Below are positions 6,137-64,000 of a stretch of 64,000 nucleotides of DNA, one piece after another. The notes under the pieces were generated by a model. It had not been told where the DNA came from and did not search any database. It worked only from the letters and a program-made list of their open reading frames with translations. The stretch is from assembly GCF_004010195.1 (NCBI RefSeq), contig NC_057718.1, forward strand, positions 73,989,775 to 74,053,774, in the 5' to 3' direction. This stretch comes from Chiloscyllium plagiosum. Taxonomy: Eukaryota. A program made the position numbers and the translations under genes. Position 1 is the stretch's first letter. Each line of letters begins with the position of its first letter.

Positions 6137-9100
6137 AGTAGTGATTGGAATTCGGTGAGATTATTGACTGAGATCCTTGACTAGCTTTGTTAACCTGGGC
6201 CAATCAGGGACCTCTGGCTGACAGAGATAAATGGGATTCAAAGAGTCTCCTGACTTCAAGGACTGACTCTGAGCTAGTTGGTTACAGCCAGTGTACTGTG
6301 CACATGTAAATAAAGGATGAGTTAGTGATGGGATACCAGCCTCTGAAGTTACTTCAGTTGCGACTGGAGAAAACGTGCCTGAAGAACATTTGCTCACCAT
6401 TGTCGTCTTTGAGTTGAGCTAAGCATTTCTGGTATCATGTCTTTATTCAGGAAGCTTGACTCGTCATCGAAGACTGGGCTCAGTATGTGGAAAGAATGCA
6501 ATGTTTTTTTGAAATAAATGATATTGAGGCAGATGAAGAGCAATGATTAATCCTTCTGGTTGCTTATGGTCCTGCAGCATTTTCGCTTATTAGAGGCTTA
6601 GCTTTCCCAAAGGTACCAGACACCAAAATCTTCTAAGAGTTAACGGATTTGGTTGAGGAATATTACGACCCCAAACCACCACTAATTCTGAGACACTATC
6701 CGTTTTATTGGACTATTAGCCAAGTTTTACAAGCCCTGACTTGAGTAAGAAAACCGGTCGGTATCCAGGAGAGTGCACACCCTGAAAAATCCACCAGCAG
6801 AATCCATACTTGGATTTTTGACAAAGTTAAGATAACTGGCAGAGGCATATGATTTTGGGTTAACAGTGAATGAGATGCTGAGAGACTGTTTGGTATGTGG
6901 GATTAAAGTTGTCGTCATGCAAAAGCGCCTACTAGCTGAAGCCCAACTGGACTTCAAACAGGCTTTGTCATTATAAATATGCCAAATTGAGCATGGGAGC
7001 TACAGGACATCCTAATGGAAGTGGTCACCCTCACCTGTTTGACTGAGCTTGGGGAATACCATTTGAGTGTAAGCAATTGCAGAGTTTCACTCAGGGTATG
7101 TTCTGAAGCAGAGGGACCCCTAGGCCAGCTCACAGCAAAACCCCATGACAAAGCCGAGCCTCAGCCAAATGGCTGAAAAGCTCTGCAGGATTGGGGCTGG
7201 CAAGTCATTGTCGTTGCTGCCAGAGTTCGGACTCGAGACAGCAAAAGAGTCCTACGAACCCTGACTTGAATAAGAAAACAAGTAGGCCAGTAATCAGGAC
7301 AGTGCAATCCCTAAAAAGTAATATCTACCTGTGGATTGGAACAGTTAGATTGCTTAGCAACCTCCAAATCACAACCAATTAAAATTAATGTCTGGTTAAA
7401 TGGTCATCTAGTTCTCATTGAGCTTGATACCAGCGCAGCTGTATCAGTAGTTTGCAGAACCTATATTTAACAAGATTCTCTGTGGTCTCCAATCCACGTT
7501 TGTGCAAGACTTCAGCAAGACTGAGAATGTATGCTGAGGAACCATTACAATTAATGGTATGACTTCAGTTCCTGTCTCCTCTGGGAAGCAGTTGGTGCAA
7601 TTACCACTGTAGTCAGAGACTCTGGTCCAAGCCTATTGGGGTAGAATTTGTTGAGAAAGATTCACCTTGATTGAGTCAACATTTTTTGATTAGAAGATGG
7701 CTGTCTCTGTGTAATCCTAATGAAATAACCATGAGTTTTTCAGGAAAGGCTAGCAACTATCAAAGGAGCCAAGACCATTTTATATGTTGATCAGGAAGCA
7801 ATTCTGTGATTTTGCAAAGCCCGCCCAGTGCCATTTGCCTTGCAGGCAAAAATAGTGGCAGAAATCAGGAGGCTGGAAAGTAAAGGAATTATCAAACCAG
7901 TGCAGTTTGCGGAATGGGCAGCACTGGTTGTGAAGCCTGACAACTGCTGTTTGCAGCAGGATAAATGCCGAATTGCTTGCATAAAGGACTTATTCACAGA
8001 ATTGAGAAGGGCGGGGGGGGAGCTGTCCTTCACAAAGTTGGACATAAGTTAGGTGATGAATCCCAGAAGTAGATCACAATTAATACCCATATGGGTTTTT
8101 ACAAATATACAAGACTGCGATTTGGGGATTTTTCCAGGGAATGATGGAGAATGTTTTATAAGGGCTACCCCAGGTTGCTATTAATTTGGTGCTAATAACT
8201 GGAAAGACCAATAAAGAGCACTTGGAAAGCTTGGACATAGTGCTTAAATGCTTTTCCCAGGTGGGCGTACACCTTAGAAGGGAAGAATGTATGTTCTAGG
8301 TGCTCCAAGTGATATACTTTAGTTACAGCTGACAAAACTGCATTACACCCATTGGAAGATAAAGTTAGGGCAATCAAAAGTGCCTGGCTTAGGTCTTTCC
8401 TTGGGTTAATAAATTATTATGGGAAATTCATACTTACCCTAGCCACTATCTTGGCACCCTTACACCTGTTGAAAAAGGGTTAGCCGTGGAAAAGGTTATG
8501 TAGCCAAGAAATACCCTTTAAGGAAGTGAAAAAGCAGCTATTGCCATCTAAGGTGTTGGCCCATTTTGATCCGAAGCAAGAGGTGGTGCTGACATGTAAT
8601 GCTTCCCTGTATGATCTTGGGGTAGTGTTTGCTCACCAGTGGTCCAACAGCAGGAAGCAGCATGTTTTTCCTGGACTTTGGCTAATGCCGAAAGCAAATA
8701 CACAGATAGTGAAGGGAAGTTTGGCGGTCATCTTTGGTATGAGAAATTTCTACCAATACCATTACGGATGTAAATTTGTCATAGTAACAGATCATAAACC
8801 GTTAAAACTACTTAAAAATGATGAAGCCACGCCACCCATTGCTCCTGGTTCGCTTCAGCGTTGGGCCCTTATTCTCAATACATACAAGTTGGAACATACT
8901 CCAGGAGGCCCAGTGGTTCAAGCCACCTCCCACAGGCAGAAACTCCACTAATGGTGCCTCCTCTGGAAGAGTCTGTTCTGGTTTTAAATTTTCTGGACAC
9001 CTTTCTGGTCCCCACTGGCAGTGTCTGACTGTGGACACAAAGGGCCCGTCCCGATGAAACTAAAATAGCTGGTGGTAATGGGGAAAACAAAAGGGCCATC

Positions 9101-31904: not shown

Positions 31905-34515
31905 CTGAGAACAGGGGAAGGTGTGGCATTGTTAGTCAAGGACAGTATTATGGTGGCAGAAAGGACATTTGATGAGGACTTGTCTGCTGAGATTAGAAAC
32001 AGGTTGGGGGTTTTCCATAGGCCTCCGCAAAGTTCCGGAGATATAGAGGAAAGGATTGCAAAGATGATTCTAGATAGGAGTGAAGCTAACAGGATAGTTG
32101 TTAACTTTCCCAATATTGATTGGAAACGCTATAATTCAAGTACCTTAGATGGGTCAGTTTTTGTCCAATGTGTGCAGGAGGATTTCCTGACATAGTATAT
32201 AGATAGGCCAACAAGGGGCAAGGCCACATTGAATTCAGTACTGAGTAACGAACCCAGCCAGGTGTTAGATTTGGAGGTAGGTGAGCACTTTGGTGATAAT
32301 GAACACAATTCGGTTAAGTTTACTTGAGCGATGGAAAGTGATAGGTACATACCGCAGGGCAAGAGTTATAGCTGGAAGATGGCAATTATGATATGATTAG
32401 GCAAGATATAGGATGGGAAAGGAAATTGCAGGGGATGGGCACAATTGAAATGTGGAGCTCATGCAAGCAACAGCTACTACGTATCCTTGACAAGTAAGTA
32501 TCTGTCAGTCAGGGAGCAAGTGGTCGAGTGAGGAAACTGCGGTTTACTAAAGAAGTTGAATCTCCTGTCAAGAGTAAGAAGAAGGCTTATGTAAAAATAA
32601 AATGTGAAGGCTCAGTTAGTGTGCTTAAGTGTTACAAGTTAGCCAGGAAAGACCTAAAGAGAGAGCTAAGAAGAGCCAGGAGGGCACATGAGAGAAGTCT
32701 TTACAGTTAGGATTAAGGATCAATCTTTTTATAGGTATGTCAGGAATAAAAGAATGACGAGAGTAAGAGTAGAGTCTGTCAAGGACAGTAGTGGGAATTT
32801 GTGCATGGAATCCAAAGAAATAGGAGAGGCACTAAATGTCTTTCATTGTCTTTCTCTTGTATGAATAGTAATGTTGTCAAGGAGAATACTGAGAGACAGG
32901 CTATTGGACTAGACGGGATTGGTTTTCACAAGGAGGAGGTATTGGCAATTCCAGAACGTGTGAAAATAGTTAAGTCTCCTGGGCTAAATGGGATTTATCC
33001 TAGGACACACTGGGAAGTTAGGGAGGAGATTGCAGAGCCTTTGATTTTGATCTTTGTTGTCATTTTCTATAGGAATAGTGCCAGAAGACTGGAGGATAGC
33101 AAATGTTGTCCCCTTGTTCAAGAGGAGGAGTAGAGACAACCCTGGTAATTATAGACCAGTGAGCCTTACTTCAGTTGTAGATAAAGTGTCGGAAAGGGTT
33201 AAAGGTGATAAAGTTTATAATCCTCTAGAAAGGAACAATTTGATTAAGAATAGTCAACACGATTTTGTGAAGGGAAGGTCATGCCTCACAAACCTTATTA
33301 AGTTCTTTGACCAAACAGGTGGATGAGGGTAAAGCCGTTGATGTGGTGTATATGGATTTCAATAAAGCATTTGTTCAAGTTCCCCACGGTAGACTATTGC
33401 AAAAAATATAGAGGCATGGGATTGAGGGTGATTTAGCAGTTTGGATCAGAAATTGGCTAGTTGAAAGAAGAAGGTGGTGTTGGTTGATGGGAAATGTTCA
33501 TCCTGGAGGTCAGTTACTAGTGGTGCCCAGCGAGGATCTGTTTTGGGGCCATTGCTGTTTGTCATTTTTATAAATGACTTGGGTGAGCGCATAGAAGGAT
33601 GGGTTAGTAAATTTGTGGACGACACGAAGGTCGGTGGAGTTGTGGACAGTGCGGAATGATGTTGCAGAATACAGAAGGACATAAATAAGCTGTAGAGCTG
33701 GGCTGAGAGGTGGAAAGTGGAGTTTAATGTGGAAAAGTGTGAGGTGATTCACTTTGGAAGGAGTATTAGGAACACTGAGTACCGGCCTAATGGTAAGATT
33801 CTTGGTGGTAGTGTGGATGTGCAGAGAGACCTTGGTGTCCATATGCATAGATCCCTGAACATTGCCACCCAGGTTGATAGGGTTGATAAGAAGGCTTACA
33901 GTGTGTTAACTTTTATTGGTAGAGGGATTGAGTTTCGGAGCCATGAGGTCATGTTGCAGCTGTATAAAACTCTGGTGTGGCTGCACTTGGCCATATTGCA
34001 TACATTTCTGGTTGCCGAATTATAGGAAGGATGTGGAAGCATTAGAAAGGGTGCAGAGCAAATTTACCAGGATATTGCCTGGTTTGAAGGGAAGTTCTTA
34101 TGAGGAAAGGCTGAGAGACTTGAGACTGTTTCTGTTGAGAAGATTAAGAGGTGACTCAATAGAGGCATACAAGATGATCAGAGTATTAGATAGGGTGGAC
34201 AGTGAGAGCCTTGTTCCTTTGGTGATGGCTAGCAGGAGGGGTATAGCTTTAAACTGAGAAGTGATAGATATAGGACAGATGTCAGAGGTAGGTTCTTTAC
34301 TCAGTAATAAGAGCAGTATTATTATTACTCAGTAATAATACTCTGCCTGCAACAGTAGTAGACTCGCCAACTTTAAGGGGATTTAAATGGTCATTGGATA
34401 AATATATGGATGATAATGGAATTGGGGAGGTTAGTTGGGCTTCAGATCGGTTTCAGAGGTTGGTGTAACATTGAAGGCCGAAGGGCCTGTACTGCGCTGT
34501 ATTGTTCTATGTTTT
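31905..34515 (+). mobile_element. CR1/HER1 LINE, near-complete ORF2 (APE + RT), decayed
   Basis: GEGVALLVKDS..FHRPP..NFPNIDW endonuclease, NYRPVSLTS, QRGSVLGP..FVDDTK, 3' UTR ending TTGTTCTATGTT. Confidence 0.95.
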
Positions 34516-43269: not shown

Positions 43270-44828
43270 CATATCACAGTGAAGGAAGTGTAGGATGTAT
43301 TAGAATGTATAAAGGTGGATAAATCTCTTGGTCCTGACCAGATATATCCAAGAACACCGCAAGAGGCTAGAGAAGAAATTGCAGGGGCCCGGGCTGATAA
43401 ATTTGCATCGTTTGCCATGCATGAGGTTCTGGAAGACTGAAGGGTAGTGAATGTTGTGTCCTTGTTCAAGAAGGGCTCAAAAAAAACCTGAGAACAATAG
43501 ACCAGTAAGCCTACAGTTGTGGTAGGTAGGTTACTTGAGAAGATTCTGAGAGATAAGATATATGTGCATTTGGAAAGACAGGGTTTGATTAGATGTAGTC
43601 AGCATGGCTTTGTGCATGAGAGACCATGCCTGTCAAATTTGTTTATGTTCTTTGATGAAGTGATTAAGAAGGTTGCCTGAGTGCAGGGCAGTAGATGTAA
43701 TTGATATGGATTTCAGTAAGGCCTTTGATAAAGTTCAACATGCTAGACTACTCTTGAAGGTTAGATTGCATAAAATCCAGGGGTAGCTAGCAAATTGGAT
43801 ACACAATTAACTTGATGGTAGGAAGCAGAGGGTAATAGTGCATGAATGCTTGTCGGACTGGAGGCCTATGAGTAGTGGACTGCCTCGGGTCAGTGCTGGG
43901 CCCATTACTGTTTGTTATCTATATCAATGATTTGGATAAAAATGTACAAGATATGATTAGTAAGTTTGTAGATGATACTAAAATAGGCGGTATTATGGAC
44001 AGTGAGGAAGGTTATCAGAAATTGCAGCAGGACCTTGATCAGCTGGGGAACTGGGCCAAGAAATGGCAAATGGAGTTTAATACAGATAAGTGTGAGGTCT
44101 TGCATTTTGGAAAGTCAAGTCAAGGAAGGAGTTTCATGGTGAAGGAGTGTAGAGGATCAGAGGGACTTGAGTTCAGGTGCACAGTTCTCTGAAAGTGGAG
44201 TCACAGGTGGACAGGGCAGTGAAGAAGGCTTTTGGCACACTGTCCCTCATCAGTCAGGGCATTGAGCATAGAAGTTTGGAAGTTATGTTGCTGTTTTGTG
44301 AGACGTTGGTGAGGCTGCACTTGGTGAATTGTGTTCAGTTTTGGTCACCTTGCTATTAAACTCTTTTATAAAAAAAAATGCAGAAGAAATTTACAAGGAT
44401 GTTGCCCAGGACTCAAGGGTCTGAGTTATAGGGAGAGGTTGGACAATCTAGGACTTATTTCTTTAGACCATAGGAGCCTGAGGGGGATCTTATAGAAGTG
44501 CATAAGATCATGAAAGGTATGGATAGGGTGAATGCACTCAGTCTTTTTCCCAGAATAGTTTAAGGTTAGGAAGGAAAGAATAAAAGGGAACTTGAGGGGC
44601 AACTTTTTTTGATTTGGAATGCATTTGGAATGAGCTGCCAACGGAAGTGTTTGAGGTGGGTACATCAATAGCATTTAAGAGGAATTTGGACAAAGGCATG
44701 GGTAGGAAAGGATTAGAAGGATGTGGGCCAAGTGCAAGGAAATGGGGTTAGCATTGATGGTCATTTTGATCGGCATGTGCCAGTTTGGGCCAAAGTGCCT
44801 GTCTCTATGCTGTAGGACTGTATGACTA
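43270..44828 (+). mobile_element. CR1 LINE RT and 3' end
   Basis: GSVLGPLLFVIYINDLD..FVDDTKIGG..KCEVLHFG. Confidence 0.92.
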
Positions 44829-49569: not shown

Positions 49570-51430
49570 AGAACACAGAACATTACAGCGCAGTACGGAT
49601 CCTTCATTCCTCAATGTTGTGCCAACCTGTGGAACCAGTCTCAAGCCCATCTAACTTAGACTATTCCATTTTCGTCCACATATTTATCCAATGACCATTT
49701 AAATGCCTTTGAAGTTGGCAAGTCTACTACTATTGCAGGCAGTTCCATGCCCCTACTACTCTGAGTAAAGAGACTACCTCTGATATCTGTCCTATATCTA
49801 TCACTCCTCCGTTTAAAGCAATGTCCCCTCGTGCTAGCCACCACCATCTGAGGAAAAAGGCTCTCACTATCCACCCTATCTAATCCTCTGATCATCTTAC
49901 ACGTCTCAATAAAGTCACCTCTTAAACATCCCTCTAACAAAAACAGCCTCAAGAACCTCAGCCTTTCCTCATAAGACCTTCCCTCCACACCAGGCAACTT
50001 TTTAAAATTAGATTACAGTGTGGAAACAGGCCCTTCGGCCCAACAAGTCCACACCGACCCGCCGAAGCGAAACCCACCATGGCCAATTCACCTGTACATC
50101 TATGGGAGGAAACCGGAGCACCCGGAGGAGAACGTGCAAACTCCACACAGTCAGTCACCTGAGGCGGGAATTGAACCTGGGCCTCTGGCGCTGTGAGGCA
50201 GCAGTGCTAATCACTGTGCCACCGTGCCGTCCGATTCTTAGTAAATCTCCTCTGCACCTTTTCCAAAGCTTCCACATTCTTCCTATAATGCGGTGACCAG
50301 GACTACACAATACTCTAAGTGTGGCTGCACCAGAGTTTTGTACAGCTGCAACATGGCCTCATAGCTCGGAAACTCAATCCCTTTACCAATAAAAGCTAAC
50401 ACACTGTGCGCCTTCTTAACAACCCTATCAACTTGGGTGGCAACTTTCAGAGATCTATGAACACTCAGCTCATCTATAGTACCAAGAATCTTACCATTAG
50501 CCAAGTAAATTGTATTCCTCTTACTCCTCCTAAAGCAAATCACCTCACGCTTTTCCACATTAAACTCCACTTGCCACCTCTCAGCCCAGCTCTGCAGCTT
50601 ATCTATGTCCCTCTGTAATCTGCAACATTCCTTTGGCACTATCCACAACTCCACCGACCTGGCTGTCATCTGAAAATTTACCAACTCTACCTTCTATGCT
50701 CTCATCCAGGTCATTTATAAAAATGACAAACAGCCGTGGCCCCAAAACAGATCCTTGCGGTACATCACTAGCAACTGAATTCCAGAATGAACATTTCCCA
50801 ACAACCATCACCCTCTGTTGTCTTACAGCTAGCCAATTTCTGATCCAAACTGCAAAATCACCCTCCATCCCATGCCTCAGTATTTTCTGCAATAGCCTAC
50901 CTTGGGAAACCTTGTCAACGCCTTACTGAAATCCATGTACACCACATCAACTGCATTACCCTCATCCAGCTGTTGGTCAACTCAATAAGGTTTGTAAGGC
51001 ACAATCTACCCTTTACAAAACTGTATCAATCCCAAATCAAATTCTTCCTTTCTAGATGATTATAAATCGTATCTCTTTTATCCCTTTCCAACACTTTACA
51101 ACCAAACTAAGGCTCACTGGTCTATAATTACCAGGGTTGTCTTCACTCTCCTTGAACAAGGGGACAACTTTTGCTATCCTCCAGTCTTCTGGCACTATTT
51201 ATGTAGACAATGACGACATAAAGATCAAAGTCAAAGGCTCTGCAATCTCCTCTAGCTTCCCAGAGAATCCAAGGATAAATTCCATTTGATCCAGGGAACC
51301 TATCTATTTTCACACTTCTCAGAATTGCTAACACCTCCCTGTGAACCTCAATCCCCTCTAGTCCAATAGCTTGTCTCTTTGTATTCTCCTCTATAGCATT
51401 GTATTTTTCCAGTGTGAATACTGGCGAAAG
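49570..51430 (-). mobile_element. CR1/HER1 LINE (subfamily of 3528-6025 and 31905-34515) with an HE1 SINE nested at ~50008-50230
   Basis: PQGSVLGPRLFVIFINDLD, LYKTLVQPHLEYC motifs; SINE interrupts CAGGCAAC..TAGTAAAT. Confidence 0.92.
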
Positions 51431-52231
51431 ATATTGTCGAAAGTTACTTTGTTTAGGGTTCTATTGCTGGTGCAACCACCTTTTGCAATACTATACACAA
51501 CCATAAAATATAAGTGCGAGAAATATCAATACAGTTTTTATAATCTTTGATCACCTGTTTTTTTCCTGGTGGTGATGATGCATACCGACCCTCCTTCACC
51601 TAGTACTGATAATTGATTCCCACTGCTGGGAAAGTCAGAACAAGGGAGTATAATCTTAAAATTGTCTCCTCTGTTTCCTTCTCCCTCCCCTTCCCCATCC
51701 CGACATTGCTACCAAATTCATTAGTTCAGTTAACCTTGGACTGAAATGTTAACTTTTTCTTTTTTGCTCCCATTATAAAAATTAATTTTTAGTAACAAAA
51801 TCCAAATTTTAACAAACATGTTTAGTCACTGTCAAAGCATAATGTAACTGATGTACTACTTTGAAAAAGTATGGGATGCTGACATCTGAGCTTTCATTTT
51901 TGCTATCATGTCTTCAACATTTCATTAAGCTGACATGATAGTTGCTAAAAACTGTAAATACCCTGCCATCTAGTTGAGTTGAATCTGTATTGCTGGACAG
52001 ACTTTCCTTTGTTTTCATCATTTAGTGAGCATCGTTTGTTACGTCATGAATACTTTTTGTACTGTCCTAATTTTTTCTTAGTCTTCAACATTTTAACAGT
52101 ACAACTGTAGCTATTCCTCATAGTGTGTTTAATCATAGCAACAATAATTATTTTAGTTATTACGTTACATGTAACTGATTTCCTTTAATGTTTCTACAGT
52201 CTTTTCCAATTGATTTTGCTCTGCTTTTCAG

Positions 52232-52315
52232 AAGGACGTGAAAATGAAAACTGCTTTGTTTACCGAAGATATTTTGAATTTTACGTCCTTGAATCGAAGC
52301 TTACCGAGTTTCATG
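52232..52315 (+). CDS. SNX14: SNX14 coding exon (PX, RRY motif), [29 protein letters not shown]
   Basis: Pyrimidine tract and CAG 52229-52231, GTAAAG donor 52316; phase 1-1. Confidence 0.95.
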
Positions 52316-52509
52316 GTAAAGTGGTGAACAAAATATACTATGTCCAGTGAATCAGTTTACGTCATGAATTTAAAACAAGAGTATTTACTTCTGAGTACAG
52401 GCCAATTTGTGACTGTGAAACTAGTTTCACGTTTACATCCATTTTTTGAGATGGTGAGATATGTATTTTGTTAAATGTATGCAGGATTCTCGTCTTGAAT
52501 TTACAGTCG

Positions 52510-53242
52510 AGTACTGCCACACAGTGTTTTAACTCTTACATCGAGCAAAGAAACTGCGAGTCGACTCTTAATAAGCAATCCTATTTATTTAACACAATTC
52601 ATGCTATAACCATAAAATACATAGAAACCAACAATTTACACTATAAATCTAATCAACTATCTTGTGCTTTAACGTAACTCTGGATGATCAGATACTACCA
52701 CACAGATTTTGGTCATGAACCACATAGTAGTGATTGTCTGGTTATCTTCTCCTGGTGTTTCTAGGGATGTCTTCTCTTCACAGTGGTTCGTCACGAGTTA
52801 CTGCTCCTGAGGATGTTGTCATGGCAATTTGTATATTTAGTAGTTGTTCCAGCCCTTTTGGGAGAGATTGGACCCAACCAGGCATTGACATGTCGATGAC
52901 AGGGTGGTCCTTGGACATCCATTCCTGGAGGTGTTAGGTGCACATAAGTCAGGTAGTCCTTTCCAAATAAGAGTGTGAGGCACCCCTGTGACTGGCAAAC
53001 AACTTGTTTCCAATTGTCCTGGGATGGCATTCAGGTTGATTCTATTTAATACAAATTTAAGTGCGTATTGTATTGTCTTGAGTTGCTGGTTAATTGCATA
53101 CTCTGTCAGTCTGTGAAGCTGCAATCTGTCTGGATTCTGCAGCATGTTTACAAGGTGACTGATTTGGTCTCCATTTCCCAGTGTGCCTCATTTATTGTCC
53201 ATTTTCATAAATCCATCATTTTGAGCGGCCCATCCAGCCACA
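52510..53242 (-). repeat. 3' LTR of provirus
   Basis: Starts TGTGGCTGGATGG on - strand right after the PPT; TATTAAATA ~53044-53052; AATAAA 52584-52589; colinear with 60818-61593; outer end uncertain by a few nt. Confidence 0.85.
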
Positions 53243-53255
53243 GTTCCTCTTCTTG
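53243..53255 (-). promoter_or_regulatory. Polypurine tract
   Basis: CAAGAAGAGGAAC immediately 5' of the 3' LTR TG. Confidence 0.7.
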
Positions 53256-54939
53256 ATCCTGAACACGAAGCATGATGGATCACATGATCACAGATCAATT
53301 TCATGCGGTGACTACATTATCATTCAGGCTCAAGCAAAGCACAACATATACTTAAACAGCTAAACTCTCGCAGCTAGCATACTTGAAAATCATACCTAAC
53401 TAAGATCAAGCAAATTTCATCAAACTATATCTAAATGGAATATCAAACTTCGGACTTAACTGCTAATCAAGCAAATATTGTAAATTAGAATAAGTAAAGG
53501 TATTGGAGAAACAAACCCATTCACAAAAAATTCATAACGAGAAACGGAAAAGTAAAACAAACTTTATAAAACCGGAGTGAACAGTGATCAAGTAAGGTTT
53601 GCTGAGTACAAATGAGCCAGTAGTGGTAGATTCAAATAAATAGATATAAAAATAAATTCATAGCAAAAACAAGCATTATAAAACTGGGGAATATTTCATC
53701 CAAACAATAGGATAGAACATTCTTTACAAATGACATGTTAACTAATATTTTCTCGTCTAACAAATATTTATCCTGGACTGTTTGGTGTTTCTTGTGTGTT
53801 GTTTCCGGTGCTGATGACTATCCCGATGAAACAGATATTGATTATGTACTGCGTGGTCGTGATTGTCCTGGGCAGTGATCAAGGTTGTTTCTGCTGTTAT
53901 CCTTGTTTAACATCTCAATAGTTTCAAACAAATGTAAAGCATATGCCCTAACCCTCTCTTCCACTTTTTAAAAATGAATAGGAATGTGAACCCCAAGTCG
54001 GGTTTAGAGCGCTGGTAGGCTCCAACCTTGGTCCCTAGTGGTAGGGGTTCAGGATAGTTTTAAATGGGCTGACCATGGAGTGGGCCCAAAAGACTGAAAT
54101 GAGGCGGTCATCATGACCAGTGAATTAAGTATAAAGACGAAGTGGTCATTGTGACCTATGGAGGAAATTGAAGACAAAGATAAAGGAAATGTGAAGGCGA
54201 CAATGGTTGTGACCGTGGGCAGAATGACTCCCATCAGCAAGTAAACAAATAAGAGTTTGTCCCACTGGGACAACAGAGATGTATGAAATGAGTGAAAGTT
54301 TGAATCATCAGAAACATTTGTACCTCGCCTTGGGTGGCTGTCAGGAGCTGTTTCATCATCTGGATTCATGAATGAGTGCATTCATCAAATAAGCACCCAC
54401 AAAGACTCATCAGTGTGTTGTGAATCCTCACTCTCTGAGGGGTATGGCAATATTGTATCCTCCCGGTTTCCATGTCCATGTCCTATCATTCCCTCTAGCA
54501 GTGATACCCTGAATGTTGGATGATACTATTTAATGGTCTGGGTCAGTCTGTTTTTCCGTTTTAGTATTGTCATGTGTTTATGTTGTGGGTACACTGTCTG
54601 GGATTTGAGTAATGAGTTGGGTTTGTTCAGTTTCCTGTCTGTCAGGGGGTTATTGTGGAGTTCCGCCATGTCTTGAATGATTGAAATATGTTGTATGTCC
54701 ATGCTGTCAGTTATTAGCAAGTTGTTCCAATTTGTTAGAGAGTCCATCCATTAAATCAATTAAACCATCTGGGGCTTTCTTAGGCATTGAAGCTGCAGTC
54801 GGTGGTTGTGATGGAAAAGTATGGTTTTCATCAGGGATGAGGTCTGTCTTGAGGATGTGTCAGGGGTATCCTTGGTCTGGTTATTTGCTCTAAGGCAGTA
54901 TCATCTACCACACATATAGTAAGGTGGTGAGAGTGGCTG

Positions 54940-57900
54940 TGTTGTGTGCCATAGTCTTTTAATTGGTTTACATTGGTACCAACCAGTCTTTCCTTTAGCT
55001 TGTAGAACCTTGTATATTGAGGGGCTTGCCTTATCCACCAGGGTGTGTAGACCTGAATATTAAGGTGAGAGAAAGGAACTAGGGTGGTTTATCTGGAGCA
55101 TCATCTGTTGTCCTGTTGGGTATTTGAAAGGGTTAACTTTACTGTCAAAGTAAGCCTTGCTCATTTTCCTTTTTACCCTAACCTAACAGCTGCTGCTAAC
55201 TGAATATTTTCATGGGTGAGGGCAAGTTCTGTAAAGTCAAGACTGAACAAATAATCAACTCCATTTCATGGGGTGGCTGGTTATCAGGGTTTGGGAATAT
55301 ACTTTTGGATTGGCAGAAAGTGTTGGGTACCATCATGAGGACAAACAGGAGTACTGTGTCCCAAGTTTATTGTTCTGCTGCACCATTTTCCTAATCATCT
55401 CTTTTCGAGTGCAGTTCATCCTTCCCACAATCCCACTCGATTGGGGGTGGTATGCAAAGTGGAATTTCTGCTTGATACCACGTATCGTTATCACATTCTG
55501 TATGACTTGGCCAGTGCAATGGATTCCCCGATCTAACTTGAGACTGAGGGGTAGACCCGATCTTGTAAATACCTGTTGTGTTAGGATTTGAGAGATTGTT
55601 TTGGCTGTATTTGTCCCAATGGAAAAAGTCTTGACCCATTATGTGAAAATGCCTATGATGAGTAGATTATAGATAAATCTGTTCCTACATGATAAAAGGG
55701 GTATAATCAATTTGTAGATTTGTCCAGGGCCCTTCCACTGGATGGTTGTGCCTTAGTTCTCCCTTTCTGGATTATTTTTGGCACAGACCAGACAGTTTGC
55801 TATGTAATTAGCGACATCCTTGTGTAAGGAGAAAGTGAGGACTGCAGATGCTGGAGACCAGAGTTGAAAAGTGTGGTGCTGGAAAAACGCAGCAGGCCAG
55901 GCAGCATCCGAGGAGCAGGAGAATCAACGTTTCAGGTATAAGCCTGAAGAAGGGCTTATGCCCGAAACATCGATTCTCCTGCTCCTCGGATGCTGCCTGG
56001 CCTGCTGCGCTTTTCCAGCACCACAATTTTCAACTCTACATCCTTGTGTAAGTCAGGCCAACAAGCCGTTCTTTCAATCGTTCGTAGTGGCCTCTATTCC
56101 CTGGTGCCCATGCCCACCTTGGTATTGATATATGGTTTGATTTCTCCTGTTTTTACTACCAATCCGTCCCATACCTGTAGTTATCCCTTCATTTGGCATA
56201 AGCCTCTGGATATCCTGCTCCCACAATCCGTTTGAAGAATTATTTCGTGTTGTGCATCCTCTATATTGTCGGTCCTCAGTTTGTTTGGCTTACAATGACT
56301 GCATTTGCCTATTCTCCTGTGGGGGGCTTCCAAAATCTCCATGAGTCCCTCTCTTAGGTAGTTCAGCTGCTCTGTGGTTACCTTCTGAGGATGTTTTATG
56401 GTAGCTTCTAATTTTAATTATACTGTATTTCCTTCCACTGGTTGCCTGCAGTACGTATTTTAATAAGGGGGCTGATGGTAGGGGTTTCCCATCATCAGAA
56501 ATAAAACCCCTTCCTTCCCATAATGGTAAAAAGTCAGTGAAGCTGTTGCACACAGATGTGCTATCAGTGTACATATATGCAGGTGAAGGGAACAGATCGG
56601 GTAGCTGACTGCATAGGCCACAGCTGTTAATTCTGCAGTTTGTGCACTTAAATGGCTGGGTAATTTTAAAGCTGGTTCAACCAATGGCTGTCCTTGACTG
56701 TCAATCATGTGTAACCCACAACTAGTGATCCGACTGCCATCCTCGATGGTAGATCCATCTATATAGATTTTGATTGCAGAGACTGCCTGCCTATCACTTT
56801 GTCTCATTCCTAATAATTTCTCAAACTGTTTTGGTATAAAAGCACCAGTGGGGTGTTTAGTGGCTATGATTTGGCAGTCATGCGGATCTTCCCCATAATT
56901 TAGGTTATTAGCTCGGTAGGTGGGCACCTTGGTCCATCTGACTGATGGACTCTACCACTTCAAGGTCAGGACATCGTGCAGCTTGAACTGGCTCAGTGAG
57001 CCATCTTTGATTCAGCCATTCAGCAGGAGCTGGATTAGGCTGCACGATTTAAACCAATGATGTAGTTGAAATACTGAACTGCCCTAAAGACTGCGAGATG
57101 TTGTCATTCGCACATGGATATCCTTGCTCCATTGGGCTGTAGGACCCTGGGGACATACGCCACTATGTCTGGCCTACCCTGCTGCTTTTGCAGTAGAACA
57201 GCAGATATCTGGTCTGTGACTGCAACTTCTAAGGTGTAAGTCAGGGTTGTGAACTAATAAGGCAGGTATTGTTGCGAGAGTGTGTTTTAAATCAGTTACT
57301 GCCTTTGTATGTTGGGATGTCCAATTCCAGGTAGTGGTATTTTTCAGCATCTGAGAGTGGGGCTCCCTTGGTAGCGAACTCATCAATGTGGTTCCTGTAG
57401 TATCCCACTGACCTGGGAAAGATTGGAGGGCACAAACATCTTGGAGGAGTCTGAATCATGCTTTGGAATCTATTCGCTTTTGGTCTATCTCTCTTTTCCC
57501 ATGGGTGACTATCGTTCCCAAGTATGTAACCGTAGGCTGTAGAATTTGCGCCGTCTTTGGATTTATTTTACAACCGAGCACACGTAAAAGGTCGAGTAAT
57601 TTGTCTAGGAGTTGGATGTGCTCCTTTGTTTCGATTTGTAGGAGTAGGTCATCTACATATTGGATTAGGCAGTCAGGCCGAGGAAACCTTTCTAGTCCCT
57701 TGGCTGATTGTCCATGAAAAAATCAAGGGTGAGTTATAGAATCCTTGGGGTAGACAGGTCCAGGTATAATGCTGGTCCTGAAAGGTAAATGTGAATTTGT
57801 ACTGACAGGATATGACAAGGGTATGGGACCAGAAACCATTCCTGATATCAAGTACTGTGAAGTACTTTACTTGCGTGGCTTGCTTCATTATTGTGGCAGG

Positions 57901-58660
57901 GCTGCTGGCTACTGTTGGTGCAATGAGGGGGGTGACTTTATTAAGCTACCGATAATTGGTGGTTAAATGCCATGAACCATCTGGCTTCTTGACTGGCCAA
58001 ACTGGAGCATTATTAATGGAGGCTACAGGTTGCAGCACTCCTTACTGTAACAGACTGTCAATCACCTTGGCCACCTCCCCCTCTGCTTGTCAGGGGAAAC
58101 TGTATTGTTGTTGCTGTCTCAGGTCTGACCCCTCAATTATCACTTCTCCTGGGATATGCCCACAGTTATGTTTATGCTGGGCGAATAGCCCTTTGAGTTT
58201 TACAAACACCTGTTTGAGTCAGATTCTTGGTCATTGTTATGAAATTGAATCAAAACTCCCCTATTTCGCTGATCTCATTAGCATAATTTCCTGTTGAAAT
58301 AATAGGTGGGGCATTGCTAACTGGAGACATCTGCCATATGCAGGCATTCACTGGATCAAAAGTAAGATTGTACCTAGTCATGTAATCGATGCCTAGTATG
58401 TATTCTGTACTTGGGGGACAGTTGACTAAGTTAGCAGGGTGCTGGCATGTTATGTCACCTAATTTAAATTCTGTCGGTTCAGTAATGTACCCCTCCTGAA
58501 CATGGCCAGTAAATCCATTTAAAACAGTAGTCCCTGTGGTCCGCCAGGGCAGATCATTAAATCTTGGTGTTCAGAGTTGTGTGGGAAACTCTGCTATCCC
58601 AAAGAAATTCTATGGGGTGGCCTTCTACCTCACCATTGACTAGTGGTCGATATACACACT
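54940..58660 (-). pseudogene. pol: Retroviral pro-pol pseudogene
   Basis: Protease FLWDSR(G)VS (58590-58601) and ILGIDY; RT PVWPVKKPDGSW, LDIRNGFWS, LPQGFYNSP, YVDD (57648-57659); tether AVLLQ..VAY; RNase H YIDGS..SAQTAEL..YTDS; integrase CLVC, GPWTNLQIDY, AYHPQSSG, C-terminal WYQCNQLK. Confidence 0.9.
55829..56037. mobile_element. Fold-back pLTR/hammerhead insertion inside the proviral integrase
   Basis: 15-bp perfect TSD ACATCCTTGTGTAAG (55814-55828, 56038-56052); CTGAAGA 55944-55950, GAAACATC. Confidence 0.88.
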
Positions 58661-60443
58661 CACTCCATGTTGCACATCCATACTGGGGGACACAGAAGCC
58701 AACTGTCATGTGGATGCCTCATAGGTTTGGATTCAGGAGGGCACTTGGGTTGGCTAGTGTCCACAGCATGGACCGGACCCTGCCAAGTTGGGCCTTCTAA
58801 AGGGAGTTGGTGGCTCCCTCTATCACCCCTTGATTCCGCTGTGGTCAGTGGTCCCTGTGCCTGCGAGTATGGCCACATGTGGGTGCTACATTCTCATGCT
58901 TACTGTCCTGAGGCTGACAGTGGTAGCACTACACTGGTTGCCAAGTGTTTCCATTGCTGTGCCCCTCTATCTCTCCCCATGGCTCACTAGGTTGAACTGG
59001 GTTCCTTTGGGTTCCACTTCCTTCATTCCTCCACACCGGACTCTGGTTGGAGGTTTGGAAAGGAATCATTTTTCAGTCCTTTCTCTCTTTTTGCTCTTGT
59101 TTAGTTTATGGGCTTTTTTCTCCCACACCCGGGACATACTTCTCAGAAACCATGCCTCTTTGTGGCTTGGCTCTGTGCGATTGAAATTCACACAGTCCTT
59201 CATGCTCTGTAGGGTGTCATGGGAAACTTATGTCCTAGCCCACTTAGTTGAGTCAGCCCGAATAGTTGACCCCTGTTTATGTCTTTGTAGACTCCCGAAA
59301 AATAAACTATTGTCAAAGGCTGTTAGATGTGCTCCTTTCTTTTGCCTACACTTGTTTAACCCATCTCTGGGGTCTCCTTTGAACCTAATTGCTGTTAGAA
59401 TCGCGTTTTTCATAGCGGTGAGGATTCCATCCCCTACGTTTAGTGGGGCTGAGATTGCAGACTGCACTGACTGGCTCAGACACATTACAATGAGTTTTAC
59501 TTCCTCTCTCTCTCATATAACCTATGTAAAACCTTTTGTTGCCTGACCCTTTCAAAGAATGTAAATGGATCAGCCGATGGCTCAAAGTCTGGAATTTTTT
59601 AGTAATTTCCGCTAATTGTGCCACTTAAAATAGGGTAATGTATGTTATTGATGGGCATTGGCGTCCCAATGCATCTTTTGGTGGTAATCAGGTTCATTGC
59701 AACACTGGGTGTCCCCAGGGGGTGCTGAAGGAGTTGACTCCTTTGAGAAGGATGGGGGCAGACCCCAGTCTTCCGTGCACATGGTATAATGCTGCGTGTC
59801 TTCCCTGAGTTCATCCCAGTCTATCTTCTGACCTTCCCCTTCAGCTTTAACTTCCCCATATTCGCACATTATTCCATTGCGGATTGAAAGTTGGGCTTTT
59901 AACTTCTCAATCTCCTGCAGGCACAGCTGCCTGTTTCTTTTCCCAATCTATCTGGTGAATTACCTTTACTACTGCCTGTTAATCTGCGCATTTATTTCTC
60001 AATTTCTTCACTCCATTATCACCAACATCTTTAGCTGACACTGTGCATTAGGTATCCTGGTATGCTCTCTCACTGGGTTTGGAGTTGCCTCATGTATCAT
60101 TAGTTTGCTGATTTCTTTGGTTCTGAGCTGAGTTTTTCAGTTTTAACTCCATGATTTCCATTTTTGTGTCCTCTAATTCTTTACGGACTGTTTTCAATTC
60201 CTACTCTGTACCTAACAATTGTCACAGACCGCACCTCATTGCTGTGACTTTTTCAGGCTTGGACGCCTGCTTCCCTTGAATTTTCCTAAAACCCTTCCAG
60301 TGTTTTTGTCCTAGGGATCCTGGTCCCATTTCATCGTTTCAACAAAATTCTGCCTGTATAGGCCACCTTTTCTTACTAATGTATTGCCTTAGCTTCTTTT
60401 CCCAAATGGGACAATCTTCTACTCTAGTGTCTTTCTCTGCCAT
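58660..60443 (-). pseudogene. gag: Retroviral gag pseudogene
   Basis: ATG at 60443 (MAEKDTRVEDCPIWEKKL), coiled-coil-like ELKTVRKELEDTKMEIMELKLK, PSAP 59720-59731, capsid-like region, broken CCHC knuckle 58888-58928. Confidence 0.75.
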
Positions 60444-60797
60444 TCTCGATTAACAAAGGGGTATGGGATGTGAATCAGACTGAGGGTACGGCTTTCACTA
60501 TTTTCTGGTCATGATCCTACCGGGTCTCTGCCGAATTTCCATGTTTTATCTTGCCTATCCCACGGAGGATTGCGCATGCAAATGAGCGCACGCAGACGCA
60601 CTCTGTTTGCTTGATCAGGAGTAAATACCTGTTGGCTTTTTCTTTTAAAGAACAGTTCTGTTTAGATCTTTCTGTTCCTTTCATTTTCTTGAATTCCTGA
60701 TCTTTGTGTCCTCAAAACAATCAGCTCAGGCAAAATCTCAAGGAATATGAGGTTCTATGGGCTTCGATCTCAATATGACAGTCATTTCTTCTCAAGA

Positions 60798-60814
60798 TCC
60801 CATCTGGGGTGCCA
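60798..60814 (-). promoter_or_regulatory. Primer binding site, tRNA-Arg(CCU)
   Basis: TGGCACCCCAGATGGGA on - strand just inside the 5' LTR, complementary to the vertebrate tRNA-Arg-CCT 3' end (...TCCCATCTGGGGTGCCA, recalled sequence). Confidence 0.8.
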
Positions 60815-60817
60815 GTT

Positions 60818-61593
60818 TGTTGTATCTGCCACACTAAGTTTTAACTCTTATATCGAGCAAAGAAACTGCAAGTTGGCTCTTAATAAAAATAAATGATATT
60901 TATTTATTTAACACAATTAATACTGTAACAATTAAATGCACTATAAACTAACAATTTATCCTATAAATCTAATGAACTACCTTGTGCTTTAACTTGGATG
61001 ATCATATACCACCATACTAGATCTTGGTTTTGATCCACGTGGTGGTGATCATCTGGTCATCTTCCTGTGGTCCCAGGGGTGTCTTACCTTCACAGTGGTT
61101 CATTTCAAGCTACTGCTCCTGTGGATGTTGTTGCAATGATTTGTATACTTGGTAGTTGTTCCAGTCCTTTAGTGTCCTCCAAAAATCAATCAGGGCTTGA
61201 TCATCCTGAGCAATCGGACTCAACCATGTGTTGTCGTGCTAATGGCAGGGTGGTCCTTGGGCATCCATTCCTGGATGTGTTAGGTGCACAGAGGTCAGGG
61301 AGCCCTTTCCAAATAAGGGTGTAAGGTGCCCCTGTGTCTGGCAAACAACTCGGATTTCCAATTGTCCTGGGGATGGCACTCAGATTAATTCTATTTAATA
61401 CAAGTCAAAGTGCATTTTGTATTGTCTGCAGCTGCTGGGTTAACACTGTCTGTTTGTAGCTACAGCCTGTCTGGATTCTGCAGCGTGTTTATGAAACAGT
61501 CGCTTTGGTCAAGGCTAGTCTCAATTTCCCAGCATGCTTCATCGATTGTCCATTTTCATAAATTCATCATTTTGTCCGGCCCATCCAACCTCA
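60818..61593 (-). repeat. 5' LTR of provirus
   Basis: TGAGGTTGGATGG...TACAACA on - strand; colinear with 52510-53242. Confidence 0.85.
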
Positions 61594-61759
61594 AGTAGTT
61601 ATAACATGTTTTGCAGGACAATTAAAAAGCCACTTGAGGATCTTGATGTGAGGAATCTTTCAGAATGAGATGTAAAATGCAAATCTGGGAAGCATTATTG
61701 ACCATCATTAGTTAAGCTATTTGTGGAACTTGTACCAAAGACATAGTCACTCACATCCA

Positions 61760-62630
61760 TTAGCTCCTTGCACAGATTCTCCCTTTAGGCTCAAGTAAGT
61801 CCCACTCTGTCCCTGATGATCCTCTTAGCCTTAATATGCTGGCTGAAGCCTGGAGGTTTCCCTTGATTCCATCTGCTAAAAATATTTTGAGACTGCTCTT
61901 TGCCCTCCTAACTTTTTTAAGCAATTTCCTATTTTTGAATGGCCTCTTCCATTTTTAGTGTGCTGTACCTGACACGTGCTTCCTTTTTCTTTTATCAGAC
62001 TCAATATTCCTTGATATTCTGGGTTCCCTGGCACGGTGCCCTTGCCCTTCACTCTGAAAGGTCCACAATGGCTCTGAATTCCCTCCATACTACTTTTAAG
62101 AGACACCACCTTTCCAAATATAGACTTATCTGCAAGTAGCTGCTCCCATTCTGTTTTCCAGATCCTATCTAATGAATTGAAATTGGACTTCTGTCAAGCT
62201 AGACACTTAACTTCAGTACTGCCCTTATCCTTTCTATAATGACTTTGAAAAGATTGGGGTCACTATCCCCATAATTCTTGTCAACTGAAACTTTAACCAC
62301 TTGACTGGCTTCTTTCCCAAGTATTAGCTCTAGCACTGGTCTATCAAGACTGTCCATGTATTGGCACAAAAAACTCTCTTGAATGCATGTTATAAGTTCC
62401 ACCCTATGTAATCCTTTCACACTAAAGCAATTTCATTTTGTGTTAGCAAAGTTGAAGTCCCCTACAACTGTAACCATATTTTTCTGCCAGCTTTGTGATT
62501 TGCCTACATATCTGCACCAATATCTCCCTCTTACAGTTGGGAGGCCTCTAGTATAACTACAGTAAGGTAATCACTTTTTTTTAATTTTTAAGCTCTGATT
62601 GGATGGCCTCATTTGAAGACCCTTCTAAGA
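61760..62630 (-). mobile_element. Old CR1 endonuclease-region fragment
   Basis: VVGDFN, CIQESFLCQYMDS..LELILG motifs. Confidence 0.75.
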
Positions 62631-63469: not shown

Positions 63470-63562
63470 AAGATTGTGGTGCTGGAAAAGAACAGCAGGT
63501 CAGGCAGCATCCAAGGAGCAGGAAAATTGATATTTCGGGTAAAAGCCCTTCATCAGGATTCC
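63470..63562 (-). mobile_element. Penelope pLTR arm with hammerhead motif
   Basis: - strand AGGAATC-CTGATGA-AGGGC-TTTT-ACCC-GAAATATC. Confidence 0.75.
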
Positions 63563-64000
63563 TTTGGTGCTCTTCACGATCTCTACAGGAGAGACGTCAA
63601 TGTCTAGCGGAGAGTGGTTGCTCAGTGCCCTCCTGAAGTCAACAACCATCTCTTTCGTCTTGTCCACATTCAGAGACCAGTTGTTGGCTCTGCACCAGTC
63701 CGTTAGCTGCTGCACCTCCTCGCTGTATGCTGACTCGTCATTTGCGCTGATGAGACCCATTACAGTCTTATCGTCAGTGAACATGATGATGTGATTTGAC
63801 CTGTGCATCACTGCACAGTCATGTGTCAGCAAGGTGAACAGCGGTGGACTGAGCACGCAGCCCTGGGGTGACCCCGTGCTCAAGGTGATGATGTTGGAAA
63901 TGCTGTTTCCAATCCGGGCTGACTGAGGTCTCCCAGTCAGGAAGTCCAGGATCCAGTTACAAAGGGAGGTATTTAGGCCTAGCAGACTCTGCCTTCCAGT
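63563..64000 (-). mobile_element. Rex1/Babar-type LINE RT fragment
   Basis: [51 protein letters not shown]. Confidence 0.85.

Follow-up and report, generated by a model that had tools for sequence, protein, structure and literature searches.

A fixed, long-dead endogenous retrovirus of Chiloscyllium plagiosum whose Pol is probably nearest to that of a snakehead-retrovirus-like virus

Introduction

Endogenous retroviruses (ERVs) related to snakehead retrovirus (SnRV) have been on record from cartilaginous fish since 2015, when three ERV lineages were described in the elephant shark and one of them, CmiERV lineage I, was found to cluster with SnRV (Han 2015, PMC4422223). Here we analyze a minus-strand provirus flanked by long terminal repeats (LTRs), 9,084 bases long, at positions 52511-61593 of a 64,000-nt stretch of the Chiloscyllium plagiosum genome (NCBI RefSeq assembly GCF_004010195.1, contig NC_057718.1, positions 73,989,775 to 74,053,774), together with the family of copies to which it belongs. 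This whole stretch is called the window below, and all coordinates refer to it unless a contig is named. An earlier note on the same DNA had described the element as a mosaic spuma-related provirus and had pointed out that a cartilaginous-fish lokiretrovirus would matter. In view of the 2015 report, it is not the first SnRV-related ERV from a cartilaginous fish.

Four further studies describe the groups with which the element has to be compared. The clade named "Huo" comprises SnRV-related retroviruses including class III ERVs, and the screen behind it took in three cartilaginous fishes, which the available text does not state to be the source of "Huo" members (Xu et al. 2018, PMC6001957). Elephant-shark elements in which only pol was detectable have been classed as foamy-like and named CmiFLERV, and for foamy-like ERVs and foamy viruses alike, the primers reported are tRNA-Lys or tRNA-Asn (Aiewsakun and Katzourakis 2017, PMC5512871). 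The catshark ERV-Spuma is another foamy-like ERV of a cartilaginous fish (Song et al. 2023, PMC10699275). Lokiretroviruses are characterized by a basal position of the reverse transcriptase (RT), an Env resembling the F protein of paramyxoviruses and pneumoviruses (PF00523) and, in some members, an smc gene, and cartilaginous fish are absent from their host list in the text available (Wang and Han 2020, PMC7947760).

We consider it quite likely that the element analyzed here is a fixed, long-dead ERV of a multi-copy family, whose Pol is nearest, among the viruses sampled, to that of an SnRV-like fish retrovirus and then to the Pol of foamy viruses. The SnRV-like virus is represented by a 10,688-nt record of the viral contig collection IMG/VR (L032, L066, L113), which we take to be SnRV itself, a virus reportedly first described by Hart et al. 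in 1996, on the basis of its length, its layout and its tRNA-Arg primer.

Structure of the provirus

The LTR pair was found as direct repeats about 8.3 kb apart, and the interval between the repeats contains gag remnants followed by protease (PR), RT, tether, RNase H and integrase (IN). The features of the provirus, in the order of its own transcription, are as follows.

60818..61593, minus strand: 5' LTR, 776 nt; starts with TG and ends with ...CAACA
60797..60814, minus strand: primer-binding site (PBS), TGGCACCCCAGATGGGAT, placed after the 5' LTR and a 3-nt spacer (AAC); complementary at 17 of 18 positions to the 3' end of tRNA-Arg(CCU) plus CCA
58720..60700, minus strand: gag remnant; remnant of the major homology region (MHR) at ~59300-59350, remnant of a CCHC knuckle at ~58880-58930 and a PSAP motif in the frame at 59648-59947
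58253..58718, minus strand: protease remnant, identified on a motif basis only; active-site triplet D-S-R instead of D-S-G at 58598-58590, with ILGIDYM downstream
57228..58218, minus strand: reverse transcriptase, identified by Pfam RVT_1 and tblastn; YVDD at 57659-57648; in-frame stops and frameshifts
56916..57227, minus strand: tether or connection, a degenerate RNase H-like domain; Pfam RT_RNaseH_2 (E 6.5e-06) and alignment to the related frame P0001
56341..56660, minus strand: RNase H; Pfam RNase_H (E 1.3e-05)
54940..56250, minus strand: integrase, identified by Pfam and tblastn; H2C2 zinc-binding domain, catalytic core and a weak C-terminal SH3-like part; split by an insert
53255..54939, minus strand: post-pol region of ~1.7 kb, conserved among copies; no recognizable env or other gene
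53244..53254, minus strand: polypurine tract (PPT), AAGAAGAGGAA, an 11-base purine run ending one base before the 3' LTR
52511..53242, minus strand: 3' LTR, 732 nt, with an approximate end (~52511); starts with TG; the AACA that terminates the LTR in the family is missing or altered here

The repeats, the tRNA match and the order of the Pfam domains on the minus strand (RVT_1, RT_RNaseH_2, RNase_H, Integrase_H2C2 and rve) confirm the earlier description of a near-full-length minus-strand provirus with LTRs, PBS, PPT, gag and pro-RT-tether-RNase H-IN. The set of hallmarks expected of a retroviral ERV is present, with paired TG...CA LTRs, a tRNA-complementary PBS after U5 and a PPT before U3, the terminus of the 3' LTR being damaged. 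The gag-pro-pol order is likewise that of retroviruses, protease and gag being identified by motifs only. Position 61593, which the earlier note had given as the end of the element, proved to be the exact first base of the 5' LTR (TG...). The family terminus ...CAACA was defined from the 3' LTR of another copy (L027) and from five junctions between 5' LTR and PBS. The two LTRs of the provirus are identical at 581 of 715 aligned columns (81.3%) and differ by 90 transitions, 44 transversions and 12 gap events, which corresponds to a Kimura two-parameter (K2P) distance of 0.221.

The proposal of a tRNA-Arg primer was also borne out. The PBS of this copy complements the 3' end of host tRNA-Arg(CCU) plus CCA at 17 of 18 positions, other family copies do so at 18 of 18, and L058, L059 (two genes) and L061 contain host tRNA-Arg(cct) genes whose 3' end fits this PBS. 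The primer of CmiERV lineage I is presumably tRNA-Ser. By analogy with retroviruses, genomic RNA of the family would have been reverse-transcribed from host tRNA-Arg(CCU) annealed to the PBS just past U5, plus-strand synthesis would have been initiated at the PPT, and the integrase would have put the LTR-flanked DNA into a germ-line chromosome.

A first pattern for the primer tRNA gave 65 sites, and scanning of 11 loci and 5 further stretches among them yielded no tRNA. At least some of these 65 sites are the PBS of other family members (one lies in copy L013, and aligned copies share the bases). Two other tRNA genes were encountered, one with an Arg(CCT)-type 3' end that ARAGORN calls Pro(cgg) (L062:1449-1521) and one with an Arg(ACG)-type 3' end that it calls Cys(aca) (L132:1500-1574); both are probably anticodon-mutated copies or pseudogenes.

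Decay is extensive. The 622 pol codons that can be aligned to reference Pols are interrupted by no fewer than eight in-frame stops and four frame changes, and the provirus is long dead and heavily decayed.

Phylogenetic placement of Pol

To place the family, Pol rows of this copy and 19 others, with X at each stop or break, were aligned to 30 reference Pols from IMG/VR. The choice of frames followed local similarity to P0001 and to ten guide Pols drawn from four groups. P0001 is an intact 336-aa RT-tether frame on a public 3,070-nt contig of JGI source, separate from the loci analyzed. It was the sole match of a word-based search for longer homologues with the 90-aa RT frame of this provirus, is 66% identical to the RT of this copy and takes a basal position within the family in the trees. 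Rows were omitted if they duplicated the copy of another locus or had no pol match (L004, L005, L011, L013, L015, L017, L018, L024, L025 and L027) or had fewer than 380 filled columns (L008 and L022). Among the references, 7 of the 17 foamy records and 4 of the 12 records of ~8 kb (one of which had no RT frame) were not used, nor were 5 metagenome records that lacked an RT frame and 5 class II or metagenome rows. The foamy references were confirmed by Pfam matches to Gag_spuma and Foamy_virus_ENV, and the gammaretroviral references by Gag_p30 and TLV_coat. A 12,708-nt record and two partial records are assumed to be epsilonretroviruses, an assignment based on length and otherwise supported only by their grouping; they are called epsilon-like below.

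In the IQ-TREE phylogeny of 26 rows and 770 Pol columns, the family (8 rows including P0001) was joined to the SnRV-like virus with support of 99/97, and this pair was joined to five foamy viruses with 100/99, while epsilon-like, gamma and class II sequences branched successively outside. A quick tree of 49 rows and 747 columns recovered the family as a clade (100), its union with the SnRV-like virus (98 in the Shimodaira-Hasegawa-like approximate likelihood ratio test, SH-aLRT) and the further union with foamy viruses (98), and a tree of RT only gave the same grouping with values of 95 and 94. Bit scores of tblastn summed over Pol were 300 for the SnRV-like virus, 220-239 for foamy viruses, 205 for epsilon-like, 196 for gamma and 68 for class II. 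The RT is 41-46% identical to the SnRV-like RT, and its 90-aa frame is 46% identical to it compared with 36-44% to nine foamy genomes. Similarly, P0001 is 38% identical to the SnRV-like RT-tether compared with 25-30% to six foamy viruses. Based on these results, the predicted Pol of the family is well supported as SnRV-related and as lying inside the side of the retroviral tree that unites foamy viruses and SnRV. Within that side, a sister relationship to SnRV is the favored placement, not a proven one.

Solved structures give a complementary view. The best PDB scores of the 90-aa RT frame were obtained with foamy PR-RT (E 2.5e-14), followed by murine leukemia virus (MLV) RT (1.7e-6) and Ty3 RT (0.009-0.04). 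The RNase H frame matched 2lsn best (titled only "RNase H", E 2e-4) and then foamy PR-RT chains (~2e-3), and the integrase core matched human immunodeficiency virus (HIV), human T-lymphotropic virus (HTLV) and prototype foamy virus (PFV) all near 1e-5, without preference. All the motifs named in the earlier note are found in the translations, including KPDGSW, LDxxNGFWS (here LDIRNGFWS), LPQGFxNSP (here LPQGFYNSP) and YVDD in the RT and WDS-R in the protease. Its statement that protease and RT closely resemble foamy-virus Pol is upheld for RT and for Pol as a whole by the PDB scores and the trees. For the protease it was not confirmed; the PR frames of this copy gave no Pfam match and a 213-aa PR-to-RT-start frame taken from another copy, not from this one, gave no PDB match.

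These observations raise the question of whether the element is instead a foamy-like ERV in the strict sense. Such an ERV would have arisen on the foamy stem, and SnRV would be a more distant relative of it than foamy viruses and the foamy-like ERVs of fish. The structural matches of RT and RNase H agree with such an origin, and an approximately unbiased (AU) test did not reject a tree that unites the family with foamy viruses and leaves the SnRV-like virus outside (14.8 log-likelihood units lower, p 0.098). The elephant-shark CmiFLERV elements were called foamy-like with only pol detectable (PMC5512871), and no foamy-type gag or env was detected in the present family either. However, all three unconstrained trees give the SnRV-like virus as the sister of the family (99/97, 98 and 95), P0001 is closer to that virus by the identities given above, the Gag has an MHR and a CCHC knuckle, and no foamy Gag, protease or Env family was matched in Pfam. 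We therefore regard a strictly foamy-like ERV as unlikely.

A class I ERV related to epsilon- or gammaretroviruses is a second candidate. In another comparison, the identity of P0001 was 35% with the epsilon-like reference and, at 37%, only slightly higher with the SnRV-like virus, and the similarity of the integrase points in the same direction. On the other hand, a tree that unites the family with epsilon-like and gamma sequences was rejected by the AU test (p 0.019, 37.3 log-likelihood units lower), and all three unconstrained trees place the family with the SnRV-like and foamy viruses, so that we give a class I origin very little credence.

Several points weigh against the SnRV-related placement and should be read together with it. 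The frame choice used the SnRV-like Pol as one of its ten guides; P0001 needed no frame choice, yet it sits at the same place in the trees. In a tree of IN only, the four reference groups and the family branch from one fork without support, and the integrase scores higher in tblastn with gamma (79.7 bits) and epsilon-like sequences (73.9) than with the SnRV-like virus (45.8) or foamy viruses (~49.5). The grouping with foamy viruses that leaves the SnRV-like virus outside survived the AU test, as described above, and the branch of the SnRV-like reference is long, at ~1.0 changes per column. The identity of that reference as SnRV is itself our assumption. Apart from the knuckle, no gag or env similarity to the SnRV-like virus was found at E up to 1. 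The maximum-likelihood phylogeny that the earlier note had recommended was run with foamy and SnRV-like references, among which it places the family; the tree is without elephant-shark CmiERVs, fish or amphibian foamy-like ERVs, ERV-L, lokiretroviruses and Ty3/Gypsy elements. Finally, no clean target-site duplication was found at the ends of the provirus, because the 3' LTR of this copy has lost its last four bases. For TACT to adjoin the provirus on either side, the LTR would have to stop at GGCAG, and the LTRs of other copies end in CAACA.

The higher integrase scores are also the sole hint of mixed ancestry, and a weak one. They would fit a recombinant whose RT came from a foamy-like or SnRV-like parent and whose gag or IN came from a class I (gamma- or epsilon-like) parent, as would a Gag of orthoretroviral type, LTRs that are 19% apart and the lack of a clean target-site duplication. 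Nevertheless, the IN-only tree contains no supported conflict, the RT-only and whole-Pol trees agree, the two LTRs of the provirus are 81% alike and thus closer to each other than most matches to other copies (66-86%), and the provirus and its junctions are conserved in other species. Moreover, the SnRV-like reference has the same combination of traits, and recombination is thus not needed to explain it. The term "mosaic" used in the earlier note accordingly finds no support, and a recombinant origin appears highly improbable.

Two readings would place the element deeper in the tree or outside retroviruses. Among the basal lineages that the earlier note had put forward, the trees favor the SnRV-like option and speak, if indirectly, against a lokiretrovirus or a different lineage at the root of the known retroviruses. 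The family lies inside the crown formed by gamma, epsilon-like, SnRV-like and foamy sequences with class II as the outgroup, in a tree that has no lokiretroviral sequence. Its RT is 41-46% identical to the SnRV-like RT, and neither PF00523 in the three sense frames nor an SMC-like gene was matched, which leaves a basal lineage with a negligible probability. An ordinary Ty3/Gypsy LTR retrotransposon would account for the many copies and for the lack of a recognizable env. The arrangement of RT, tether and RNase H is retroviral, however, as is the type of the 18-nt tRNA PBS. Ty3 RT scores only 0.009-0.04 against 2.5e-14 for foamy PR-RT, and the family is nested among retroviruses in all trees, which contain no Ty3/Gypsy rows; a retrotransposon of this kind thus has next to no likelihood.

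Gag and comparison with described viruses

The gag frames are conserved across copies of the family. The CCHC knuckle that the earlier note had recognized as a remnant is indeed broken in this copy (~58930-58880), and an intact C-X2-C-X4-H-X4-C was found in 5 distinct other copies among 29 loci scanned. The MHR (Q-x3-E-x7-R) is likewise intact in other copies, whereas this copy keeps both motifs only as remnants. For gag, there was no Pfam match, and the knuckle was the only part for which tblastn showed homology to a reference Gag. Foamy Gag is known to have neither an MHR nor a Cys-His box and to carry GR boxes instead. The family thus differs from foamy viruses in its MHR, its CCHC knuckle and its tRNA-Arg primer, and it resembles foamy viruses and foamy-like ERVs in that they form the next-nearest group in the Pol tree (100/99) and provide the nearest solved RT structure. 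No match to Gag_spuma, Spuma_A9PTase or Foamy_virus_ENV was obtained in Pfam at E up to 0.5-1; intact foamy references match the Gag model strongly and score 1,498-1,688 bits with the Foamy_virus_ENV model.

The Gag of the 10,688-nt record has 618 aa and a single CCHC knuckle, its Pol has 1,275 aa from the first ATG (1,398 aa from stop to stop), its Env is long, and its PBS corresponds to the 3' end of tRNA-Arg(ACG) genes. It shares with the present family the single CCHC knuckle and an MHR-like motif in Gag (the MHR being read by eye), the NGFW and FAFTF motifs of RT, an H..DCG segment before RT that is a gap in the other references, and a tRNA-Arg primer. The isoacceptor is ACG there and CCU here. 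Further differences concern the Env frame of the record, 1,134 aa long between stops, and its 3' ORF, compared with ~1.7 kb after pol in an element of 9.1 kb, and a long insert between RNase H and IN that this element mostly lacks. All frames of the record are open, whereas the present family is endogenous, decayed and multi-copy. A foamy-like Pol combined with a tRNA-Arg primer and with a Gag that has an MHR as well as one CCHC knuckle is the pattern of SnRV. The traits that had seemed to form a mosaic, namely the foamy-like Pol, the orthoretroviral Gag and the tRNA-Arg primer, travel together in the SnRV-related lineage.

CmiERV lineage I, a provirus of ~9.5 kb in a cartilaginous fish, offers an endogenous comparison (PMC4422223). 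Judged by eye only, its printed sequence shares the RT motifs (there KPDGSW, LDISNGFWS and LPQGFHNSP), a single CCHC knuckle, and an LTR that ends in ...AACA and is separated from the PBS by a 3-nt spacer. There are also several differences. The PBS is another 18-mer and thus corresponds to another tRNA, and the PBS words of the present family do not occur in its supplement 1 (Han 2015, PMC4422223). Its env has a gamma-type CX6CC after an LQNR...LD stretch, which was not found in the present family, and its LTRs are 3.3% apart compared with 19% here.

The region after pol

Downstream of pol, no env could be recognized. The three sense frames of this copy gave no Pfam match, and among 15 post-pol and 3 gag/PR frames of other copies, Pfam returned only a weak SH3 match (SH3_Tf2-1, E 0.002, in the C-terminal part of another copy's integrase). 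No tblastn match at E up to 1 was found to the Env of SnRV-like, epsilon-like, foamy or gamma viruses, and no plausibly placed CX6CC or immunosuppressive-domain-like motif was seen either in the provirus itself or at the 29 other loci. The Gag and Env of the intact SnRV-like reference match no Pfam family either, and the blank searches for gag and env in the present family are therefore weak evidence.

One possibility, which we put forward tentatively and hold to be rather doubtful, is that the family represents an uncatalogued, elasmobranch-specific branch of SnRV-related viruses primed by tRNA-Arg(CCU). The 1.7 kb would then contain an env unlike any known, or none, as in a retrovirus turned intragenomic retrotransposon. 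Few fossils would then be more closely related to the lineage's only exogenous virus.

Age and fixation

To investigate whether the insertion is shared, contigs from two other species (organisms B and C) were aligned to the locus at a likeness of at least 85%. Both junctions were recovered from organism C. One contig (52200-52654) crosses the 3' LTR junction and has 311 nt in the flank and 144 nt in the LTR; another (61246-61900) crosses the 5' LTR junction and has 348 nt in the LTR and 307 nt in the flank. A contig of organism B (52202-52569) crosses the junction between 3' LTR and flank, and further contigs cover the interior. The listed pieces are mostly ~94-98% like this copy, with one long piece of organism B at ~92% counting gaps, compared with 70-86% for paralogues. 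Because the junctions are shared and the likeness exceeds the paralogue level, these sequences are orthologues. The insertion is fixed and older than the split of the three species, and there is no viral activity today.

The two LTRs (distance 0.22) have diverged about five times as far as the species have at this locus (~0.04-0.05), suggesting, as a rough estimate, that the insertion is several-fold older than the species split. An absolute age depends on the rate, and the elephant-shark rate of 2.2e-10 (Han 2015, PMC4422223) leads to an implausible 500 Myr. The decay after insertion is seen in the LTR divergence of 19%, the D-S-R triplet of the protease, the stops and frameshifts of pol, the palindrome in the integrase and the lack of any recognizable env.

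The locus adds one dated fossil of SnRV-related retroviruses in cartilaginous fish, with a minimum age given by the species, at least two or three, that share the insertion. The published picture, in which such viruses were widespread in early vertebrates, is unchanged. In practical terms, the family can be used in the repeat annotation of the host genome and in a denser tree of the SnRV-related clade.

In run X9, which we guess to be RNA, eight of the contigs listed are identical or nearly identical to pieces of the provirus between 52752 and 60977; these may be transcripts or carried-over DNA. No RNA run was listed for the stretch around the 5' junction.

Copies of the family in the host genome

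A search of the 3.56-Gb genome with the whole element gave 185 DNA matches (25 of 3,484 first-look candidates scored), and a search with the kilobase of RT gave 59 matches with 70-86% identity (40 of 72 candidates scored). Across both searches, matches to other copies are mostly 66-86% identical to this element. The resulting number of RT-bearing copies, ~40-70, is to be read as a minimum. Among the open frames of the 29 other loci for which a gene was assigned, the longest has 213 aa and runs from PR into RT; most frames of at least 180 aa in these loci carry no strand or gene assignment. The whole family is old.

Three more copies lie on the same contig, 0.2-2.6 Mb from the provirus (C9:73821201-73824289, L030; C9:73609168-73610877, L013; and C9:71403296-71403920). 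The first of these, L030, is the closest copy to this provirus, with 76-86% DNA identity, and its sister in all trees.

Five IMG/VR metagenome records (L091, L096, L100, L107 and L116) contain a degenerate WTRLPQGF pattern without an RT frame and are most likely chance matches in unrelated viral contigs.

The palindromic insert and the surrounding sequence

The integrase region is interrupted by a secondary insertion.

55829..56037, no strand assigned: palindromic repeat of 209 nt with 85-nt arms that are 93% complementary; splits the zinc-binding domain of the integrase

The insert is flanked by 15-nt direct repeats (55814-55828 and 56038-56052), which represent its target duplication, and it is absent from the same integrase site in other copies of the ERV. 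Elsewhere the repeat is found in both orientations, within other members of the ERV family as well as close to them. In all four runs, which cover three species, the summed depth of contigs at the insert reaches millions. A search of 52000-62000 against Rfam at E up to 1 returned only sub-threshold miRNA-like hairpins on the insert and no hammerhead family.

The earlier note had located the provirus in an intron of SNX14, a placement that was neither confirmed nor refuted. Genome-wide Pfam searches for PXA and Nexin_C gave 3 matches each, none of them on this contig, and short exons would escape such searches. Among 122 frames of at least 75 aa in the window outside the element, a scan that misses short exons found no sorting-nexin domain, and 8 frames carried RT-type domains. 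Frames with RT or RT-RNase H matches in Pfam lie at 4243-4734 (minus), 4942-5193 (minus), 8484-8948 (plus), 33051-33323 (plus), 43872-44189 (plus), 50602-50922 (minus) and 63503-64000 (minus), and these seven further RT-type frames indicate that other retroelements occupy much of the window.

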